The position numbers and the translations under genes are program-made. The notes below the pieces were generated by a model. That model had not been told where the DNA came from and searched no databases. It was given only the letters and a program-made list of their open reading frames with translations. DNA of 64,000 bases. Source: a virus. Taxonomy: Duplodnaviria > Caudoviricetes. Every line of letters starts with the position of its first letter. Positions within the stretch are counted from its first letter, which is position 1. Positions 3,482-59,977 of the stretch are shown one piece after another. The DNA is taken from positions 77,568-141,567 of IMG/VR virus record IMGVR_UViG_3300028591_000109. One strand, written 5' to 3'.

Positions 3482-4045
3482 TTACTCGGCTTGCTGGTTA
3501 TCGTTCTGACTCTGCGACGGGAACAGGGCCTCGTAGGGAGCCCAGTCGATGGCATCCTTCTCCCGCCAGCCTGCGGCCAGCGTCTGGTTGATGTGGGCGA
3601 CGGCCTTCACGTAGAAGTCCTGAGCGCCGGCCATCGTCTCGAAGGTGTGGTAGACGGGCGTGCCGTCCTCCCGCTCGCCCAGCTTGAAGGTGACTGGCAG
3701 CGTCGCGCCCCCGGTCTGCACGGCGAGGTCGTAGGCCGCCTTGAAGTTGAACTGGTTCTCGCTGGAGAGCCACACAGAGACGGACTCCTCTGCGCCTTCG
3801 GGAGTCCATACGAAACCGGAGAGGATCTTCTCGTCGGTGCGGGCGTTGATGTCGGCAAGGATGGCGGCCTTCACGTCGGCAAACGAGATGGTGGCGTGCT
3901 GACGCTTGTAGAGGTAGACCTCATACCAGGAGGCAAGGCCGCCTGCCTGTTCAGGCTGCTGCAGTCCATAACATACGGTGACGCGCGAACCCTCGTCGCG
4001 CAGTGGAGCGTAGTCGCTCACGGGTCCTGTGGTCTTGTTCTTCAT
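3482..4045 (-). CDS. DUF4376-like phage tail-associated protein
   Basis: WLSSENQFNFKAAYDLAVQTGGATLPVTFKLG motif, typical of Bacteroidales phage proteins found after tail-fibre genes. Confidence 0.65.
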   Translation of the reverse strand: MKNKTTGPVSDYAPLRDEGSRVTVCYGLQQPEQAGGLASWYEVYLYKRQHATISFADVKAAILADINARTDEKILSGFVWTPEGAEESVSVWLSSENQFNFKAAYDLAVQTGGATLPVTFKLGEREDGTPVYHTFETMAGAQDFYVKAVAHINQTLAAGWREKDAIDWAPYEALFPSQSQNDNQQAE

Positions 4046-4132
4046 TGTGATAATTATTTAAATGGGTGAATAATGGTTTTATCGGGATGGCTGCGATGGT
4101 ATCGCAGCATACTGGACGGAGGGAGATTTCCG

Positions 4133-29034: not shown

Positions 29035-29814
29035 ATGAAACACTTGGATTTTACGATTGACTTTGAGACCGTCGGGCTGACGGCGAACGCCGCGCCGATG
29101 ATGGTGGCCATCGTGCCATGGAACAGAGACGCCAAGGAAGACCCGTTCACGATGGACGAGGACGGGACACTCACCGAGGAGCAGACCAGCAAGTGGCCGG
29201 AGCCGCTGGAGCTGTATGTGGACCTGCGCTCCTGCGTGGTCGAGGGCTACAACTTCGACCCGGCGACCGTCGAGTGGTGGACGAAGCAGAGTTACGACGC
29301 GAAACGGGCCGTATGCGACGGGCTGGCCCAACCCGTGGACGAGGTGACGGTGGAGATTGTGGGCTACCTGAGCCGCACAAAAGAGCAACTTGGACTGGAC
29401 AGCATCTGCCTCTGGAGCCAGGGCGACACCGACCAGGGCATCCTGCGCAACCTCTGCCGCCGCAACGGCTACAACATGGAGGAGGACGTCATCCCCCACA
29501 CCCAACTGCGCGACTGCCGCACGTTGATACTGGAGGCGGCGCTGATAAAGCGGATGCGAGAGATTAAGGAGAGAAACGAGCAATTGATCAAGAGCGGCAA
29601 GGCAGTGACCGATGTTGAGATTATGCCAGACGGCAGTGTCGTTCCGTGTACGCTTCTGCCCAAGCAGATACTCGCCGGCAGCTACGACGTGTACAAACTC
29701 TTCCCTCCCCTACCCGACCGCTACGCCAAGGGCAGCGAGGCGCACGACGCGCTCTACGATGCCCTGCGCTCGTCGTGGAACACGTGGCAGGCGCTGCAGT
29801 GGATGAAGGGATAA
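29035..29814 (+). CDS. DEDDh 3'-5' exonuclease (ExoVIII/Rv2179c-like)
   Basis: IDFETVG, WSQG.TD..IL, RDCRT, HDALYDA. Confidence 0.85.
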   Translation: MKHLDFTIDFETVGLTANAAPMMVAIVPWNRDAKEDPFTMDEDGTLTEEQTSKWPEPLELYVDLRSCVVEGYNFDPATVEWWTKQSYDAKRAVCDGLAQPVDEVTVEIVGYLSRTKEQLGLDSICLWSQGDTDQGILRNLCRRNGYNMEEDVIPHTQLRDCRTLILEAALIKRMREIKERNEQLIKSGKAVTDVEIMPDGSVVPCTLLPKQILAGSYDVYKLFPPLPDRYAKGSEAHDALYDALRSSWNTWQALQWMKG

Positions 29815-29918: not shown

Positions 29919-30797
29919 TCAGAAGTCGTAGTTATCCTCCCCACTCCACTCGCCGTTGACGGTGAAACCGAAGCCGCTCTGGGTGATGGTGCCCTCGCCT
30001 TCGGAGAAGAGGGGGCCGGTGTAGCTGGTGATGCGGTTGCGCGTGACGGGGACGGCATCGAGGGTTCGCTTCTTGATCACGTCGCCCTGGGCGGTGAGGG
30101 CGGTGATGGTGACTTTCAACGTGCCGGAGGAGGAGAGATAAGGGAAGGTGAAGATTTCGTAGACGTCATCGGCGGCAACAGGGCGCGTCTCTGATTGTGT
30201 CGATTTCGTGGTGCCCTCGCCGGTGGTGGGGTTGAAGTTGGCCGAGCCGCCGGTGTAGTCGAACTTGACATGCGTGAGCTGAGCGGGGATTTCCTCGTCG
30301 GTGAACTGGAAGCGCACCATAGCGCCCATGCGGTTCATCGTGAGCTGGTGCTGTTCGGGTGCTTCGCCAACGGTCACGGTGCCGCCATAGCAGAAGGTGT
30401 CCGTCAGCTTCTGGCCGTCGCTGGCCGTGAACTGCACCATCTCCATGCTCTTGATGGTGGCACTCTTGGCCGACGAGTGACCGACGGCCACCACGCCATA
30501 CTCCCCGGCAGGCAGCGTGAGCGACAGCTGTCCGAAGTTCTCGTCGGTGGAGTATTGCGTGCGCACCTTGTCGAAATACTTAGTGCCGTCGGCATTGAAC
30601 AGCATGACGTTGAGCTTCGAGAAGCAGGTGCCAATGTCGGTGGCGGCGGCGCGGGTCGTCGCGCCGTGGGCGCTGAACGTGAGGGTCACGTTGCCAAGTG
30701 GTTCGTTACTGTCCTCTGTGTCGAGGATGGGTTTCTCGCAGGCGACGAGTGCCATGCTGATTGCGCACAGGACGCAGAGATTCTTGATTGCTTTCAT
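29919..30797 (-). CDS. FimB/Mfa2-like fimbrial lipoprotein 1
   Basis: Lipobox LVAC; TRA processing-like motif; beta-rich; PVTRNRITSYTG. Confidence 0.7.
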   Translation of the reverse strand: MKAIKNLCVLCAISMALVACEKPILDTEDSNEPLGNVTLTFSAHGATTRAAATDIGTCFSKLNVMLFNADGTKYFDKVRTQYSTDENFGQLSLTLPAGEYGVVAVGHSSAKSATIKSMEMVQFTASDGQKLTDTFCYGGTVTVGEAPEQHQLTMNRMGAMVRFQFTDEEIPAQLTHVKFDYTGGSANFNPTTGEGTTKSTQSETRPVAADDVYEIFTFPYLSSSGTLKVTITALTAQGDVIKKRTLDAVPVTRNRITSYTGPLFSEGEGTITQSGFGFTVNGEWSGEDNYDF

Positions 30798-30863
30798 TGT
30801 TTCTTTGGTGTTTAGCCGTCTTACGACGGGAAATTAATCAAATTTTGTTCAAATTATTAAATA

Positions 30864-31286
30864 TCAGAGAAGTTTTACCTTTTCGATGCGCCCATCGTTA
30901 TGCCGATGAAACCACTCTGCGTAGAGACTCGGCGCACCGAAATTGATAATCATGCCGTATGGCTGATGCGTCAGATTCATGTAGTTAAACAGTTGTCTAC
31001 GATGACAGGTTTCAACATGCGATACAGCTTTCAACTCACAGATGATGTTGCCGCCAATCATCAAGTCCATACGGTACGACTGATCTAACTGAACGTCGTC
31101 CCAGAATATTGGGAGGTACACCTGCCGCTCCACCTGTACTCCTTTCAGTTCCAGCAGGTATTTTAGAGCGGCCTCGTAGGCACTTTCCACCAGTCCTGGC
31201 TTGAACTTGCGGTGTACGCGCATGGCTTCGCCAGTGATGTCGGCAAAGAACTGATACCGCTGGTTGTATTCTTTTATCAAATCCAT
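30864..31286 (-). CDS. GxxExxY protein (PD-(D/E)xK nuclease fold) 1
   Basis: PGLVESAYE, YRMDL, ICELKAV, GMIINFG. Confidence 0.9.
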   Translation of the reverse strand: MDLIKEYNQRYQFFADITGEAMRVHRKFKPGLVESAYEAALKYLLELKGVQVERQVYLPIFWDDVQLDQSYRMDLMIGGNIICELKAVSHVETCHRRQLFNYMNLTHQPYGMIINFGAPSLYAEWFHRHNDGRIEKVKLL

Positions 31287-31423
31287 AGTTGGGTGTTTTA
31301 AACCGTCTTACGACGGGAAATTATTCAAATTATTCTCAAATTATTCAACCCTGCGGATGGAAAAGTTCTAATAATTTGAATTAAATTTGAACAATTTCCA
31401 CCCGTCAGGGTGCTCAGAAGTCA

Positions 31424-32296
31424 TCAGAACTCCACGGTGTCGAACTCCTGCCAGTCATTGACCGTGAAGGTGGAGGTGAAGGCGGCATCGGTGAAGAAGG
31501 CGCCGCGATACGTGGTGCGGTAGCCGTTGCAAAGGGGCACGTCGTCGAAGGTGCGCTGCTGGAGGGGCTGGCCGGCGGTGTCGTAGGCGGTGACGGTGAC
31601 GGTGTGGAGCACGGACTCGTCGGGGTCAGCGATGACGTAGGCGGAGAGGGTCACGCTGCCGTCCTGATTGAGGTTGTAGCCTTGGTAGGTGGCAGTGTAA
31701 TCACGGGGGTTCATGCCATAGCCGGCGACGTTCCATGCGGCGGGAGCCTGGTCAACGGCGATGGTGATCTTGTCGGCCTCGGAGGGCACGGGGTCGGTGG
31801 TCTCCAGTCGGAACTGGCCCACGATGCGCTGCATGAGGCACGAGAGCGTGGTGGTCTCGGCGGGGGTGAACGTCTGGGTATAGAACATCGAGTGGGTCAT
31901 CTTCGCGCCCGGCCAGGTGATGATACCGCCTTGCAGGGTAGCCGCGCCGGTGTCCTTATGGGCACAGGCATAGAGCGTGTAGGTCTTGCGCTTGTCGAGG
32001 GTGACGGTGAGGGAGCCGAAGGCTGGGTCGGTGCTGGTCTGGTGGACGGCCTGCACCTCCTGGCCGTCCTGGTAGAGCCAGACATCAAGGCGGGTGGCGA
32101 TGGTGGCGATGCTGGTGGGGTCACCTCCGGCACGGGTCATGGCCTCCTGCTCGTAGGGCGAGAAGGTGAGCGTCACCTTCTGCGGATCGTTCACGTTGGC
32201 GGGGTTCATCACTGTGCTCTCTGTTTCGAGGGCGTTGTTTTCACAGGCTGTCAGTGCCATCAGGGCACACGACAGCAGGGCAAAATACTTCTTCAT
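31424..32296 (-). CDS. FimB/Mfa2-like fimbrial lipoprotein 2
   Basis: Lipobox LTAC; MTRA; distant paralogue of 29919-30797. Confidence 0.7.
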   Translation of the reverse strand: MKKYFALLSCALMALTACENNALETESTVMNPANVNDPQKVTLTFSPYEQEAMTRAGGDPTSIATIATRLDVWLYQDGQEVQAVHQTSTDPAFGSLTVTLDKRKTYTLYACAHKDTGAATLQGGIITWPGAKMTHSMFYTQTFTPAETTTLSCLMQRIVGQFRLETTDPVPSEADKITIAVDQAPAAWNVAGYGMNPRDYTATYQGYNLNQDGSVTLSAYVIADPDESVLHTVTVTAYDTAGQPLQQRTFDDVPLCNGYRTTYRGAFFTDAAFTSTFTVNDWQEFDTVEF

Positions 32297-32454
32297 AGTT
32301 TTGCTTGGGTTTTAAGTTTGTTGATGATTGGGGTTTATTATGGCCTTACGGCCAGAAATTAGAGACTGCCGCCGTTGGCGGGAAATTTTTTTATTGCACT
32401 TAATTTCTCGGCGACAGCCGATAGTCTGAAAATTTCTGCGCGATAGCGCATCCA

Positions 32455-32877
32455 TTACAGCAGCTTCACCTGTTCTACCTCGCCGGTCGTCACATTGAGT
32501 TCGTACCATTCGCTGTAGAGACTCTTGCTGCCAAAGTTGATAATCATGCCATACCTCGTATGAGTGATGCGCATATAGCTCCAGAGTTGCTGGCGGTGTT
32601 CAACGCTCACGAATTTCACCGCCTTCAGTTCGCAGATGACGCCGCCGACCACGAGGTCCATACGGTACGACTGGTCGAGGGGCACGTCGTCCCAGAAGAT
32701 GGGCAGGTACACCTGCCGCTCCACCTTCATGCCTTTCAGTTCCAGCAGGTACTTCAGCGCCGCCTCGTAGGCGCTCTCCACCAGTCCGGGTCTGAACTTG
32801 CGGTGTACGCGCATGGCTTCGCCCGTGATGTCGGCAAAGAACTGATACCGCTGGTTGTGTTCCTTGATTGCATCCAT
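32455..32877 (-). CDS. GxxExxY protein 2
   Basis: Close paralogue of 30864-31286. Confidence 0.9.
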   Translation of the reverse strand: MDAIKEHNQRYQFFADITGEAMRVHRKFRPGLVESAYEAALKYLLELKGMKVERQVYLPIFWDDVPLDQSYRMDLVVGGVICELKAVKFVSVEHRQQLWSYMRITHTRYGMIINFGSKSLYSEWYELNVTTGEVEQVKLL

Positions 32878-33073
32878 AGTTTTGCTTGGGTTTTAAGTTA
32901 ATAATTGGGTTGTTTTGTTAGCGCCCTTGCGGGCGGAAATTGTAAGAAAATTGGGTAAGAAAATGCGCTTCGCTTGAAAAGAATTTTTATAATCACTGCA
33001 AGAATTTTTATAATTTTCTTACAAGCGGAGCGCATTCTTTTAGAATTTCCCGCCGACAGGCGGCTAAGAATAG

Positions 33074-33100
33074 AAAAGCCGCTCCTTTGCGGGAGCGGCT
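33074..33100 (-). terminator. Intrinsic terminator ending the early array
   Basis: AGCCGCTCC-CGCAAA-GGAGCGGCTTTT on the minus strand. Confidence 0.75.
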
Positions 33101-40822: not shown

Positions 40823-43800
40823 TTACGCCGCCTGCTTCAGCCCGCCGTCGCTCTCGGAGGCATTGCCCTCGGAGCCGCCGGACTGCTTGCCGTTCATCTC
40901 AGCGTTGATCTTGCGGTCGAGCTTGGCGAGGTCGGCCTTGGCCTGGCGCAGCTCGTCCTCCTTTGGCCACGTCTGCTTCAACAGTTCGTCGAGCTGGCGG
41001 ATAGTCACGTTGTTGTCGGCTATCCAGCGTTGCCAGTCGGCGATGCGGCGGGGTAGTTCCTGCAGACAGCGCAGACCATACTCCGCTGCCCGACGGGGCG
41101 AAACATGGGAGAGTTTGCCGTTATTCATGGTGTGCAGGATGCGGTTGCCTTGCAGCGAGAAGAGGTTGGTATATTCCATCGACTCGTTGCCGTCGATATC
41201 ACGGAAAATCTGCTCGTTGGTCTTCACCAGCAGGTCGAAGCCGTATAGCGAGCCTATCTTCAGGCGGACACCCTGCGTGCGGGCTGTCTGCTCGATGCGC
41301 CACAGCCGCTCACCGATGGCCTTCTCATAGTCGGGGCTCCCGACGGCAAAACCGTCGGGCACACTAAATCCGTCGAGCGTGAGAGCGTTCAGCACCGTGC
41401 CGTCCTCATAGCGAGTAAGGCGCTTCCGCTCATACTGCTGCTGGTCGGCCTGTGCATCGCTCACGTCCTGCTTCAGCCGCTCCACGTCCTTCTGCAGTCG
41501 GTCGCGGCGCTCCTCTGCCTGTCGCTGGTCGCGGTGGAAGTTCTTGCGCTCCACCTCTAAGGCGGCAATCTTCTTGTCGAGCTTGGCACGCTCCAGCAGG
41601 TCGGTGTTGCCGGAGAGGATAGCCATGTACTCGGCGAAGTTCATGTTGCCTTTCTCGTCCATGCTTCCCTCGTCGAGGGTGCGCTTGCCCAACTGCCCCT
41701 GCTTCAGCTGCTGGATAAAGGTCTGCTTGCAGTGCAGCAGATTGAACTTATAGGCATCCAACGACCGCTTCACGGCGTAGATGATCACATCCACCTTGTT
41801 GTCGCCATAGTCGCGGGCTATCACGTTGCCCTTACGCACGGCCCTGCCGTCGCGCTGCTCCAGGTCGGCGGGGCGCCAGGGGGTGTCGAGGTGATGCACC
41901 GCCACCACTCGCTCCTGGGCGTTGACCCCCGTGCCGAGCATCGAGGTAGAGCCGAAGAGGATGCGCACGTCGCCGTCGTTCACCTCGTGGATGAGTTTCT
42001 TCTTTTTCGTGTCGCACCGTGCCTCCTGTATGAAGCGTATCTCCGAGGCCGGTATGCCGTAGTCCTCCACCAGCTTGCGCTTGATTTCCTCGTAGATGTT
42101 GAACTTCCCGTCGTTTTGCCACGTCGAGAGGTCCGAGAATATCATCTGCGTACCCTTCACATCCTCGAACTTGTGATAGTACTGGGCCACCATCTTGGCA
42201 CACATGCTCGCCTTGCTCCGTGGGTGGTCGCCATACGACGGGTCGATGAGCCGCATGTCGAGACTCATCTTGCGGGCCAGGTCGGTAGCATACAGCATCT
42301 TCGCCATCTCCTGCTGCTTGGTGGGGTTGTCGATACCTATCAGCGAGAAGTCGCCCGTCTCGGCAAACTTCATCAGCGTGTGGATAAACTCTGCCTGGTC
42401 GGGGGTCGGTTCGATGTGCATCAGTCGGGCATACTTATCAGGGCGCTCGATGCCTACGTCCTTTGCCGTGCGGTAGTCGGTGATTTCATTATAGAACTGC
42501 GCCAGCTCCGGCACCTTGATAAAGTAGCGGAAGCGCTCCTTTAGCACTATCTGATTGGTCAACCCGAACTCATACTCCTGCGTCTTGCGGGTGAAGATAG
42601 CCGCCCAGGCATCGAAACAGGTGATGCCCTGCTTGGCCATCGCCTGCGGTCGCAGATAGCGGAACAGGCTGTACAGCTCCGTCAGACTGTTCGTAATCGT
42701 CGTGCCACTGAGGAACGTCGCGCCGAGGTCACGCCCCGTGCGCTGCTGAATGGTGCGTATGGCCATCAGCAGATTGTAGGCCCGCTTGCTTCCGTCCGTG
42801 TTGCCTAAGCCTGCCACGCGGTCGTGACGGGTGGTGAAGCCCAGGTTCTTGAACTGGTGGCTCTCGTCGATGAAGATGTGGTCGATACCCATCATCTTGA
42901 AGTCCACCACGTCGTCGGTGCGCTTGCGAATAGAGTATTGCAAGTCCTGAAGTTTCGATTGCAAGTTGGCTTTCTTCTTCTCCAGTCCGCGCTTCAGCCG
43001 GCTCGATACGCTGTCCCACGAGCCATACAGTGCGCTCAGACTCTCGTTCAGGTGATTCAGTTCCTCACGGATCACGTCGGCCTGCACCTCGTCCGACTGC
43101 GGTATGAAGCCGAACTGGTCGTGGCTCATGATCACCACGTCCCAGTCGTTGTTCTTCATGCGGTTGAAGAAGTTCTCACGCTCCTTGCCTGAGTAGTCGG
43201 CATGCTTGGCATAGAGCACACGGGCCTTGGGGTAAGCCGTCATATACGTCTCGGCGATGGCGGCCACGTTGGCCTTCAGTCCGATAATCATCGGCTTGTG
43301 GCAGAAGCCCAGTCGCTTCATCTCGTGGGCGGCGAGACACATGATAAGCGTCTTGCCACTGCCTACCTCGTGGTCGCAGATGCCACCACCGTTCATCGTG
43401 AGCATCCAGATGCAGTCCTCCTGGCTCTTATACAGACCGCCGCTCACCTTCTTGCCGTCCTTATACACCGGCTGCGGTATGCCGTACTTCGCCTCCAGCC
43501 CCTGCCAGTCGATGCCGGGGAACCGCTGGTGGCTTCCGTCGAACTGCGGCTTCACGTGGCAGTTGAACAGTCGGTTGTATTTGTCAGTCAGTCCGTCGCG
43601 CAGCGCCTTCGGCTGTCGCAAGAGCCAGTCCTGATAGCCCTGTCTGATTTCCTCAATCAGCGTGTTAGCCTTCTGTGTAGCCTCCGGATCCTCGTCCTTC
43701 TCATAGCTCTTACCGCTGGCGGTCTTAATCTTGCGACCCCGCTCGTCGCGGCGATACTTCATCATCTTGGGACAGCTGTTCTGCAGTGCATGCACCAGCA

Positions 43801-45913
43801 GATCCATACCGTCGAGCGACTGGCTCGCCTCACTACTCACGGCATACTGCGTATATATTTTCTCGTTGCCACGGTCACTGGCACAGGCATACTGATCCAG
43901 GTTGCGATCGTACTTCACCGTCACTTCCACCTTTGCACCGTAGTCATTGCCAGCCATCGAAAAGAACTCCGAGGCAAAGTCCTCGTAGATTTTGCAGTCC
44001 ACCCATCGCTCACCCAGGTTGAAGTCCAGGTCATCGAAGGGGATAGGCTCAGGGACGGCGGCCTGCAGGGCTTGAAGTGAAGAGTGAATAGTGAAGAGTG
44101 AAGAATTTGCTGCCGCCGTCAGGTTGCCGCTTCGTCCGTCCTGTCCCGTATGCTGCGATAGTGTCGCAGCCTCCGGGTACTTCTGCAGGATAGCATCAAT
44201 CTTCTCAATCACATTCCCTGAGATGAACCTCGCCTTAATCTCCCACTCCTCACTCAGGGGATTATAGTATATCTCCCCGTCCAGCTCGTCGCATATCTCT
44301 TCCTCACTCTTGCCAGTCAGCGCAGCCATATACCTCACATCGGGCTTGCCATAGTCATTCAGGCTCTGCGCCAGCGCCTCGTGACTGTCCGTCACGCTGT
44401 GCATCTCGTCGGTCGAGAACGCCACCGGCCTGTCGAAGATGTCGGCCTTGCGCCACTTGCCATCCTCCAGAATCTCCAGCGTCAGCAGTTCCTTGTTGAT
44501 AGCCTTGGCCATCTTCCTGTTCGGCTCCTGGTTCAGCGGGCCCCACTCCAGACGGTATTCATCATACAGGCGGTTCAGCTCCTTGCGCATCTCCGTGCCC
44601 TCCTGCATCTCCTTGGCCTCGTAGTCATACAGGCGGCGGTAACAGTCGAACATGTCAGCCATCTGTTGCTCCTTCTTCGGGTCAAACGACGAGCGCCCGC
44701 TCTTGCGCTCCTGCTTTGCACCCTTCCCGCCGTCAGTGTGCTCGGCGGTTTTGCCGCCGAGTTCCGCGTCGAGCTTCTCCGCCAGGTCCTTGCTCAGCAC
44801 CTCGCCCAGCTGCTGTGCAATCCCCTGCACACCGTCGCGGTGCTTATACACAAACGCCCGCTTTCCATAGGCATCCGTATCAACCGTCCACGCCGTGGCA
44901 ATCACCCGCTCCGGCCACATGTCGAAGTACATATTCGTCGGGCATCCCTCATCTTCATACTGCGTCAGCAGCATCGTCTCTTCCTCTGTCAGCTCGCCTC
45001 GCTTCGAGTCCTTCTGCATCACTAAGAGGTCGGTGCCCACCTCCGTGCCGCTCTCCTTAAAGAGATTGTTCGCCAACCGATACGCCCCGATGAGCCGTGC
45101 CTGCTTCAGTGCCTCGCCCAACTGTTCACCGTCACGGTTCAGGTAGTTGCTCGTGATGATATAAGCAAGCACCCCACCCTCTCGCAGGCAGTCCAGCCCC
45201 TTCAACACATAGTAGCGGTGAATCATGCGGGCAGCATCCCTGCGCACCTGACTCTTCGAGTTCGTATAGTCCGGATCAAACACGCGGATATCGCCGAAGG
45301 GAACATTCGTAGCCACCAGGTCATACATACCCAGCTCAGATGCCGGGATAGTCTCGAAGCCGTCACAGTAAACAGCGGTTCGTCTGTTGATTGTGGTCAG
45401 CGTCATCTTCGCCTTCAGCAACGTCGCCGTCAGTATATCCTTCTCGAAGCAGGTAGCATGATACTTTTTGTAGTCGCGATGATTGGTAAGATAATAGTTC
45501 GCCATATCAGTAAACACGCCCCCACCGGCCGCAGGGTCAAGGAAATTGCGATAGGCTATTCCGCCAAGCCCACATTCAAACATCGAATGATGTTCAATAG
45601 CCTTGAAGATGGCTTCCACCACCTCCCGTGGCGTATAATAAGCCGTCAGCGTGCTTGCCTTCAGGCTCTTCACCCATGCCTCGTAATCCCGCTCGCTGCT
45701 GCTATACTCCTTTAAGATGTTGTGCAGCTTTACTGTCAGTTCGTAGTACTGCAAGTCGCTCTTGCTCCATACGCTCTTCTCCAGCGGGTTCAGCACGAAT
45801 GTCATCCCCCCGAAGCCCGTGTACTTGCTCAGCGTCTCTGCGTCATACTTGGTAGCACTCAGTGCGTGCCATATTGCCTCAATGTTGTCTATCAGTCGTT
45901 GTAATTTGCTCAT
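40823..45913 (-). CDS. DarB-like N6-adenine methyltransferase / SNF2 helicase fusion
   Basis: FLDPAAGGGVF, NVPFG, HEVGSGKT, IDESH, SGT, QRDGRAVRKGN. Confidence 0.9.
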   Translation of the reverse strand: MSKLQRLIDNIEAIWHALSATKYDAETLSKYTGFGGMTFVLNPLEKSVWSKSDLQYYELTVKLHNILKEYSSSERDYEAWVKSLKASTLTAYYTPREVVEAIFKAIEHHSMFECGLGGIAYRNFLDPAAGGGVFTDMANYYLTNHRDYKKYHATCFEKDILTATLLKAKMTLTTINRRTAVYCDGFETIPASELGMYDLVATNVPFGDIRVFDPDYTNSKSQVRRDAARMIHRYYVLKGLDCLREGGVLAYIITSNYLNRDGEQLGEALKQARLIGAYRLANNLFKESGTEVGTDLLVMQKDSKRGELTEEETMLLTQYEDEGCPTNMYFDMWPERVIATAWTVDTDAYGKRAFVYKHRDGVQGIAQQLGEVLSKDLAEKLDAELGGKTAEHTDGGKGAKQERKSGRSSFDPKKEQQMADMFDCYRRLYDYEAKEMQEGTEMRKELNRLYDEYRLEWGPLNQEPNRKMAKAINKELLTLEILEDGKWRKADIFDRPVAFSTDEMHSVTDSHEALAQSLNDYGKPDVRYMAALTGKSEEEICDELDGEIYYNPLSEEWEIKARFISGNVIEKIDAILQKYPEAATLSQHTGQDGRSGNLTAAANSSLFTIHSSLQALQAAVPEPIPFDDLDFNLGERWVDCKIYEDFASEFFSMAGNDYGAKVEVTVKYDRNLDQYACASDRGNEKIYTQYAVSSEASQSLDGMDLLVHALQNSCPKMMKYRRDERGRKIKTASGKSYEKDEDPEATQKANTLIEEIRQGYQDWLLRQPKALRDGLTDKYNRLFNCHVKPQFDGSHQRFPGIDWQGLEAKYGIPQPVYKDGKKVSGGLYKSQEDCIWMLTMNGGGICDHEVGSGKTLIMCLAAHEMKRLGFCHKPMIIGLKANVAAIAETYMTAYPKARVLYAKHADYSGKERENFFNRMKNNDWDVVIMSHDQFGFIPQSDEVQADVIREELNHLNESLSALYGSWDSVSSRLKRGLEKKKANLQSKLQDLQYSIRKRTDDVVDFKMMGIDHIFIDESHQFKNLGFTTRHDRVAGLGNTDGSKRAYNLLMAIRTIQQRTGRDLGATFLSGTTITNSLTELYSLFRYLRPQAMAKQGITCFDAWAAIFTRKTQEYEFGLTNQIVLKERFRYFIKVPELAQFYNEITDYRTAKDVGIERPDKYARLMHIEPTPDQAEFIHTLMKFAETGDFSLIGIDNPTKQQEMAKMLYATDLARKMSLDMRLIDPSYGDHPRSKASMCAKMVAQYYHKFEDVKGTQMIFSDLSTWQNDGKFNIYEEIKRKLVEDYGIPASEIRFIQEARCDTKKKKLIHEVNDGDVRILFGSTSMLGTGVNAQERVVAVHHLDTPWRPADLEQRDGRAVRKGNVIARDYGDNKVDVIIYAVKRSLDAYKFNLLHCKQTFIQQLKQGQLGKRTLDEGSMDEKGNMNFAEYMAILSGNTDLLERAKLDKKIAALEVERKNFHRDQRQAEERRDRLQKDVERLKQDVSDAQADQQQYERKRLTRYEDGTVLNALTLDGFSVPDGFAVGSPDYEKAIGERLWRIEQTARTQGVRLKIGSLYGFDLLVKTNEQIFRDIDGNESMEYTNLFSLQGNRILHTMNNGKLSHVSPRRAAEYGLRCLQELPRRIADWQRWIADNNVTIRQLDELLKQTWPKEDELRQAKADLAKLDRKINAEMNGKQSGGSEGNASESDGGLKQAA

Positions 45914-48731: not shown

Positions 48732-48773
48732 AGTCGAAATGTTCAATGTTCAATCTTCAATGTTCAATCTCTC

Positions 48774-50405: not shown

Positions 50406-50666
50406 AGTTGTATATCTTTTAGTTTAAAGTTTCAAGTAAAAACGACCACCGCGTCATCCCGACGCAGCAGCCGCAATCAACATTCAAAATCAATTCGCCT
50501 GGCCAGAGCACCTGACACAGGCTTTACAAGTTATGAAAACGTGTTAGATGTCTGATGGCTGATGGCTGAAGGCTGACATCTTACATCTTCCATCTTACAT
50601 CATCCATCGTAGTTAGTGCCCCGCATCCGCATCGAAGGGTAGGTTAATCCGTGCGGGGCTGATAGG

Positions 50667-53954: not shown

Positions 53955-54072
53955 AGTCTTGAATAATTTTTAATCAAATTTTTAACCAATTTCTCGCGAA
54001 GCGACCACACCCACAAGGGCAGTAGCCGCGCCGCAAAATTCTTCACTCTTCACTCTTCACTCTTCACTTCCA

Positions 54073-55651: not shown

Positions 55652-55799
55652 CTCGCTTTACTTCGATAGTTAAATTCATACTCTGTTCCATAACTCACTC
55701 GCTTTAGATGATTACGAGTGCAAAGATACGAATTTTCAAGCGAAGAGCGAAGGGCGGTAGCAAATTCTTCACTCTTAATTCTTCACTCTTCACTTAACA

Positions 55800-57552: not shown

Positions 57553-57619
57553 AGTCTCGAATAATTTTCAGTCCAATTTTTAGTTAATTTCTGCCCTGCA
57601 AAGGGCATCCCATAGATAG

Positions 57620-59890: not shown

Positions 59891-59977
59891 AACTTGTTTC
59901 TCCTTTTGATTTGTTGATTTGAATAATTTGAATTGAATTTGAAAAATTTCTCGGTCGATAGACCGATCCGAATAGTC

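Follow-up and report, generated by a model that had tools for sequence, protein, structure and literature searches.

The closest published analogues of the repeats described here are the REP (repetitive extragenic palindromic) and REPIN elements with their RAYT partner (PMC3116915, PMC3733652) and the Ssn/NTS system (PMC11893778). The former are short palindromes outside genes, in which a conserved unpaired tag, GTAG or CGTC, lies beside the stem; they are dispersed in both orientations, often as inverted foldback doublets, form lineage-specific families, and flank a small, single- or low-copy gene coding for a Y1 transposase. In the latter, a small gene coding for a GIY-YIG nuclease is framed on both sides by a hairpin repeat (NTS-SRM) that is also dispersed genome-wide, variant repeats accompany variant nucleases, and 71% of the ssnA loci are flanked. 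Cleavage specific for single-stranded DNA (ssDNA) and an effect on natural transformation have been demonstrated for Ssn (PMC11893778), which makes it a precedent for a small nuclease framed by dispersed hairpin repeats that it cuts. The locus compared here with these systems lies in a 64,000-nucleotide (nt) stretch of DNA (the window) comprising bases 77568–141567 of the 141,567-bp record IMGVR_UViG_3300028591_000109 of a rumen phage (G000), and contains two genes of the GxxExxY family (PF13366/TIGR04256) surrounded by hairpins preceded by an AATTTC tag.

The repeats of this locus share with REP and REPIN elements the palindromic structure with an unpaired tag, the extragenic dispersal in both orientations, the frequent foldback doublets, the lineage specificity, and the position beside a small enzyme gene of single or low copy. 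They differ in the enzyme, a PD-(D/E)xK protein of the GxxExxY type, in the tag, AATTTC or its variant, in the three phased boxes of each arm, in copy numbers of tens rather than hundreds, and in being abundant in a phage as well. The likeness to Ssn/NTS comprises the framing of a nuclease gene by a dispersed hairpin repeat, the variant repeats around variant nucleases, and the association statistics (26 of 27 loci here); the nuclease superfamily and the repeat differ, and while the activity of Ssn has been demonstrated, that of GxxExxY is predicted. The repeat units and one GxxExxY clade most likely form one system. It seems about evenly balanced whether the units are the arms of a small nuclease cassette family, present as solo ends and foldback doublets in the chromosomes of rumen Prevotella-like Bacteroidales and in phages.

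The repeat unit and its linkage to one GxxExxY clade

In aligned copies, the full unit comprises three AATTT boxes placed ca. 11 bp apart, the last of which is the AATTTC tag, followed by a hairpin with a 4–6-bp stem, an invariant C-G closing pair, and a loop whose ends are G and A. Three box variants, AATTTGAA, AATTTTTAA, and TTTTCTTAC, occur in the phage, and a conserved AGTCT linker joins tandem hairpins. The 100% base pairing in the alignment of units (A3) arises by construction and is not evidence. AATTTC is found 41 times in the window against 21 expected; in the whole phage genome a strict GC hairpin directly follows 29 of 88 AATTTC sites (background 1.4%), and AATTTC ranks first of all hexamers preceding such hairpins. 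A detector of boxes plus hairpin returned 22 units, as compared with 0–2 in shuffled sequences.

In a set of 88 distinct boxed units, the loops are of the GNNA or GNA type, closed by a C-G pair; only a minority fit GNRA, and of the 434 stem pairs just one is G-U. GNNA or GNA loops closed by C-G constitute the rule for exceptionally stable DNA mini-hairpins, such as d(GCGNNAGC) and d(GCGNAGC), in which the C-G closing pair, the G and A at the loop ends, and the interchangeability of GNNA and GNA are the same as in the units, and which have been described from single-strand origins of phages and from N4 early promoters (PMC13037366). Those mini-hairpins are single sites for primase or virion RNA polymerase, unlike the dozens of dispersed copies described here. 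As the loop and closing-pair pattern fits the DNA mini-hairpin rule and not the GNRA rule of RNA, we take the hairpin to act in ssDNA.

A search for homologues of the first GxxExxY protein of the locus (GxxExxY1) yielded 27 loci in metagenome-assembled genomes (MAGs) of rumen Prevotella, Prevotellaceae, and Bacteroidales. The linkage of units to this clade is near-universal: a tag-tolerant detector found units within 300 nt of the gene at 26 of the 27 loci, at a density of 3.9 per kb near the gene versus 0.08 per kb further out, a 48-fold difference. A scan for AATTTC only detected units at 12 of the loci, the rest of the 26 being recovered when variant tags were allowed, and the tags are lineage-specific (AATTTC, GATTTC, CATTTC, and GATTTTGA). 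At most bacterial loci there is one arm on each side of the gene, with the hairpins pointing outward and abutting the stop and start codons of the neighbouring genes. A covariance model of tag plus hairpin (R1), for which 150 candidates per genome were scored, located units on many contigs of MAGs G006–G010, G317, and G332, with a maximum of 34 in G008. Eleven of 59 model hits lie within 300 bp of seven clade genes, where ca. 0.02 would be expected (18.5 Mb), and none near 12 other PF13366 genes. The enrichment near GxxExxY genes anticipated by the original prediction is therefore seen both with the covariance model and in the pattern scans.

The pattern of boxes, tag, and hairpin was met in 2 of 301 genomes drawn from across the Bacteroidales and in 5–7 of 25 genomes of one genus; being so restricted to a lineage, it is not a general promoter. 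All four genomes of this genus with the clade gene, which are incomplete MAGs, carry units. Genomes of the genus with the clade gene gave 10–34 model hits each versus 3–6 in those without, a comparison made on incomplete MAGs and ignoring relatedness. A RAYT partner of the units was sought and rejected: none adjoins them, and the 12 loci of Y1 transposases (PF01797) in four unit-bearing MAGs are free of units.

Other GxxExxY subfamilies have analogous arrangements, being flanked by inverted arrays of short boxes of their own, in one case with a perfect 15-nt inverted repeat, and these boxes recur elsewhere in the respective genomes. TTTCGTG heptamer arrays, flanking a gene of another subfamily, gave 90 hits in MAG G010 (C3:147967–148330 and 12 other contigs) versus none in the reversed control, while AATCCG arrays gave five hits, two of them flanking the gene. 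Comparison of protein identity with box type revealed no simple rule.

In 24 members of the clade, G31-E34-Y37, D74, and E84-x-K86 are invariant or nearly so, E34, D74, and E84 being invariant and K86 nearly so. GxxExxY1 was modelled with AlphaFold2 (pLDDT 94) as a minimal restriction-endonuclease-like domain, and the structures nearest to it are those of the BpuSI nuclease domain (Z 8.5, root mean square deviation 2.6 over 101 residues), DUF820/Uma2-like proteins, SwaI, Cas4, and Hjc. No solved structure was found by sequence, and Foldseek gave only weak generic PD-(D/E)xK matches. The PD-(D/E)xK-like fold that had been ascribed to GxxExxY is borne out by the conserved catalytic residues and by the model, and since the catalytic E, D, and E-x-K are conserved in a restriction-endonuclease-like fold, the nuclease is likely active. 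A literature search returned no paper assigning a function to PF13366/TIGR04256.

The four-gene locus and unit exchange between phages

The locus comprises four minus-strand genes. Lipoprotein gene 1 (29919–30797; 292 aa) codes for a protein with a cysteine-containing signal peptide and no match in Pfam or NCBIfam, and lipoprotein gene 2 (31424–32296; 290 aa) for one with weak similarity to DUF6562 and FimD tip adhesin; these fimbrillin-like lipoproteins may be surface-modifying accessory genes. The genes for GxxExxY1 (30864–31286) and GxxExxY2 (32455–32877) each code for 140 aa, the two proteins being 76% identical. Their scores, 110.3 and 102.6 bits for PF13366 and 117.8 and 110.4 bits for TIGR04256, are well over the curated cut-offs of 22 and 35 bits, in agreement with the family assignment of the original prediction, and they are the only PF13366 genes in the whole phage genome. 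Further phages (L156, L157, and L159), with a GxxExxY of only 59–76% identity, have the lipoprotein–GxxExxY–lipoprotein order as well, and homologues of lipoprotein 1 follow a GxxExxY gene in other phages (L157).

All nine predicted units of AATTTC plus hairpin were located at this locus, five on the minus and four on the plus strand, eight of them with the GNNA loop described as usual and one, at 32369, with AAC. Unit U1 (30816–30865, minus strand; strict hairpin unit 30816–30835) has three AATTT boxes, AATTTC, and the hairpin CCGTC-GTAA-GACGG, and ends 18 nt before the ATG of lipoprotein gene 1. It is one copy of a direct repeat (D2) bracketing the GxxExxY1 gene; the bracketing had been predicted with near-identical repeats of ca. 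43 bp, and although it is confirmed, the repeat proved to be 54 nt long with 85% identity (30808–30861 and 31295–31348). The other units form inverted or nested doublets, and all three doublets predicted are real. In the foldback doublet U2 (31303–31322, minus) and U3 (31393–31412, plus), corresponding to inverted repeat I2, the box arrays lie between terminal hairpins. The nested double doublet U4–U7 (32341–32450) consists of units at 32341–32360 and 32369–32387 on the minus strand and at 32402–32421 and 32431–32450 on the plus strand, while U8 (32922–32941, minus) and U9 (33044–33063, plus) are separated by a 102-nt spacer and have variant TTTTCTTAC-type boxes. Folded as ssDNA (fold z of −5.96 for U2/U3, −5.07 for U4–U7, and −5.69 for U8/U9), a doublet has two terminal mini-hairpins around a long central stem made by both box arrays. 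Moreover, a perfect 25-nt repeat (D3), comprising leader and ATG, precedes both lipoprotein gene 2 and the GxxExxY2 gene.

Units are gained, lost, and exchanged between closely related phages. Phage G004 is ca. 95% identical to G000 across lipoprotein 2, GxxExxY1, and lipoprotein 1, and is devoid of a block of ca. 735 bp (32334–33068) with six units, the GxxExxY2 gene, and the second copy of the lipoprotein-2 leader. An empty-site allele of the kind suggested by the original prediction is therefore provided by G004. At the right edge of the insertion lies the canonical intrinsic terminator of the upstream gene (33078–33100, minus strand; an 8-bp GC stem plus T run), which directly abuts the lipoprotein-2 leader in G004; its retention there indicates that ordinary terminators are in use in the phage alongside the 5-bp units. 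Conversely, two genes only 6 nt apart in G000 enclose a three-unit cluster in G004, with 90% identity to one at another place in G000; the match, a 127-nt doublet corresponding to G000 3957–4082, sits at a non-orthologous site in G004. Different units are found at two pairs of orthologous leaders (G000 52096 vs. G004 82934, and G000 56344 vs. L008 4319) of phages ca. 90–95% identical; one pair differs by paired stem changes and the other by a wholly different family member, which suggests gene conversion among units. Repeats bound the indels between closely related phages. In bacteria, an arm repeated directly over 51 nt brackets the GxxExxY gene of L058, and L130 has an empty syntenic site; these two are too diverged to define the junctions, and no clean bacterial empty site was obtained, as the synteny around two test genes was too variable and only L130 vs. 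L058 was usable.

The original prediction had treated the units as peculiar to the gaps around the GxxExxY genes, which does not hold, since the family extends over the whole 141-kb phage genome, where 31 strict units, in both orientations, make up 14 intergenic clusters. Gene-facing units of the phage end 16–21 nt before the ATG (up to 44 nt at two sites), away-facing units begin 3–11 nt past the stop codon, and some units sit between convergent genes, one cluster being itself convergent. This spacing would most simply reflect the only insertion window tolerated in short operon junctions. Examples are plus-strand solo units at 53958–54004 (AATTTTTAA box variant, hairpin TCGC-GAA-GCGA, pointing against the minus-strand flanking genes), at 57556–57607 (hairpin TGCCCT-GCAA-AGGGCA, boxes ending 3 nt before the ATG of the next gene), and at 59915–59966 (hairpin TCGGTC-GATA-GACCGA, 11 nt past a stop codon), the last two being kept in G004. 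Related IMG/VR phages have 3–13 units each, and four further phages have units beside GxxExxY, often between two lipoprotein genes.

A convergent cluster (G000 69229–69366; L004 10229–10366), situated between the tape-measure gene and a late promoter, consists of two plus- and then two minus-strand units enclosing ca. 60 nt, and has the appearance of a cassette without its gene or of the junction of a circle. G000 itself is a complete siphovirus-type phage with a 3075-aa tape measure and a giant DarB-like antirestriction/methyltransferase/helicase protein of 1696 aa (40823–45913; phrog_10089, E 4e-251), and a megablast search of deposited phages returned no close relative. The idea that the hairpins are N4-like promoters, read by a virion RNA polymerase, was rejected, the 3075-aa protein being the tape measure. 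A gene for an Rv2179c-like 3′-5′ exoribonuclease (29035–29814) adjoins the cassette region and is convergent with lipoprotein gene 1. The window also has intergenic tandem arrays, each of four or so heptamers (AGTGAAG, AATGTTC, GATGGCT beside CATCTTC, and TCTTCAC) and perhaps making up a second dispersed repeat family, at 44076–44104, 48738–48768, 50547–50608, 54040–54068, and 55766–55794; some are inverted pairs directly after stop codons. These arrays are possibly orphan arms of other nuclease cassettes.

A proposed cassette mechanism and its alternatives

If the units are arms of a nuclease cassette, one arm would be made up of three phased AATTT boxes, the AATTTC tag, and a hairpin of the form C(GNNA)G or C(GNA)G, and the full element of an arm, a GxxExxY gene, and an inverted arm; gene-less doublets and solo arms in tight intergenic junctions would then be cassette derivatives. 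The hairpin would form as a mini-hairpin in ssDNA and the boxes would serve as multi-site binding sites, so that the PD-(D/E)xK nuclease might bind the boxes and nick or cut at or near the tag and hairpin. The breaks would be repaired by copying or recombination between arms, and such repair would spread the arms and the gene in a homing- or REPIN-like manner and shuffle whatever the arms enclose, which at this locus would be GxxExxY2 and probably also the lipoprotein genes. Effects on transcription or mRNA stability would be secondary.

Such an element would resemble transposons with multi-site terminal inverted repeats, e.g., Tn7 and Mu, and miniature inverted-repeat transposable elements in having inverted ends of several evenly spaced repeats and gene-less derivatives, and IS200 in size (ca. 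700 bp with a protein of ca. 140 aa). It differs from Tn7, Mu, and IS200/IS605 in having no DDE or HUH transposase and no visible target-site duplication, and its ends are inverted, unlike the same-strand subterminal hairpins of IS200/IS605.

Several observations weigh against the cassette. As there are only two GxxExxY genes in the phage, 22 of its 31 units are far from them. No PF13366 gene was found in three complete unit-bearing related phages (G001–G003), nor was GxxExxY detected in the unit-bearing MAGs G229, G323, and G330, which are incomplete; the gene is therefore not needed in cis for the maintenance of units. In diverged phages, variant-B units are kept 16–22 nt ahead of the ATG codons of orthologous genes, which hints at a use in regulation. 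The orientation is not constant, the hairpins pointing outward in bacteria and toward the gene, or forming direct repeats, in this phage. The G000/G004 junctions yielded a 25–37-nt leader repeat but neither a target-site duplication nor a common target motif, and the co-occurrence of units and gene across genomes is confounded by relatedness. A lone 140-aa PD-(D/E)xK nuclease is incapable of strand transfer, and the arm–gene linkage would also arise with the gene as a mere frequent passenger. That GxxExxY recognises, cuts, or propagates the hairpins is our inference. Of the RAYT-like role put forward in the original prediction, the association with hairpins stands, at 26 of 27 loci and in four more phages, and the confinement of the hairpins to the gene does not; the data are equally compatible with a RAYT-like, a homing-type, and a passenger relation.

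The foremost alternative, which is nonetheless unlikely, is that the units are only regulatory, i.e., promoter-plus-stem-loop or terminator modules of phage and host, among which recombination shuffles genes and GxxExxY is a passenger. The model for it are the PeSLs of T4-type phages (PMC2839356, PMC4122927), repeated intergenic modules that likewise flank variable phage open reading frames, bracket them as direct repeats, and contain the ends of sequences inserted, deleted, or replaced between close relatives; indels and mini-circles of the same kind have been described for them (PMC2839356). The position of gene-facing units 13–21 nt before the ATG with an A-rich leader, that of away-facing units 0–11 nt after stop codons, the resemblance of the boxes to the TTTG-containing −7 element of Bacteroidota promoters, and the retention of variant-B units in phages without GxxExxY are all in keeping with such a role. 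PeSLs, however, conform to the sigma-70 consensus of the host and work as promoters and terminators, whereas the motif described here, absent from 299 of the 301 Bacteroidales genomes, is not a general host promoter, occurs in both orientations, is found in host chromosomes too, and is linked to a nuclease gene. A general Bacteroidales promoter or terminator was ruled out by the 301-genome scan together with the orientation data. Half of the units face the 3′ end of a gene or lie between convergent genes, and no T run was met directly after the 5-bp stems, where GAAATT or an A-rich leader stands instead; the phage genome also has canonical terminators and a distinct promoter class. Moreover, a passenger gene would leave unexplained the linkage at 26 of 27 loci, the preferred geometry, and the private arrays of other subfamilies.

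Quite improbable, too, is that GxxExxY is a homing-type selfish gene, the repeats spreading by other means and the nuclease cutting intact doublets, so that the gene is copied into their centre by repair. This would account for the usual position of the bacterial gene between both box arrays of a divergent doublet, for the one or two gene copies per genome, and for the shift of box type with the lineage carrying the gene, and gene-less doublets are available as potential targets. It is at variance with the location of the gene between doublets, not inside one, in this phage, L055, and L061, and with the gene-less doublets of G007 being convergent, not divergent. Least probable is an RNA-level REP-like element, with units stabilising transcript 5′ or 3′ ends or modulating translation and the nuclease having no role: the units lie inside operons and hence would be transcribed, hairpins lie ≤15 nt from stop codons, as in REPs affecting translation of the upstream gene, and some loops are GNRA, but most are GNYA or GNA triloops, favouring DNA over RNA stability (PMC13037366), G-U pairs are nearly absent, no Rfam family matches the units, and the GxxExxY linkage is left unexplained.

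Meaning for the GxxExxY family and its hosts

A broader proposal, which we put forward tentatively and regard as rather doubtful, is that GxxExxY proteins are structure- and sequence-specific nucleases acting on their own box-plus-mini-hairpin arms in ssDNA, and that the two jointly make up a new class of selfish elements, a non-HUH counterpart of REPIN–RAYT that would pass from host chromosomes to phages and back and would shuffle phage surface-lipoprotein genes as cassettes. PF13366/TIGR04256 is a very large family, and its reproducible link to a defined DNA element provides a directly testable candidate substrate, in which three phased boxes are combined with a six-base tag and with a hairpin obeying the DNA mini-hairpin rule. 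If the enzyme cuts ssDNA site-specifically, as Ssn does, it would be a possible tool. The units add a REP-like class of repeats for Bacteroidales, common to a phage-plasmid and its hosts, and offer a concrete route for the gain and loss of phage accessory genes, namely those of fimbrillin-like lipoproteins and of the nuclease itself.

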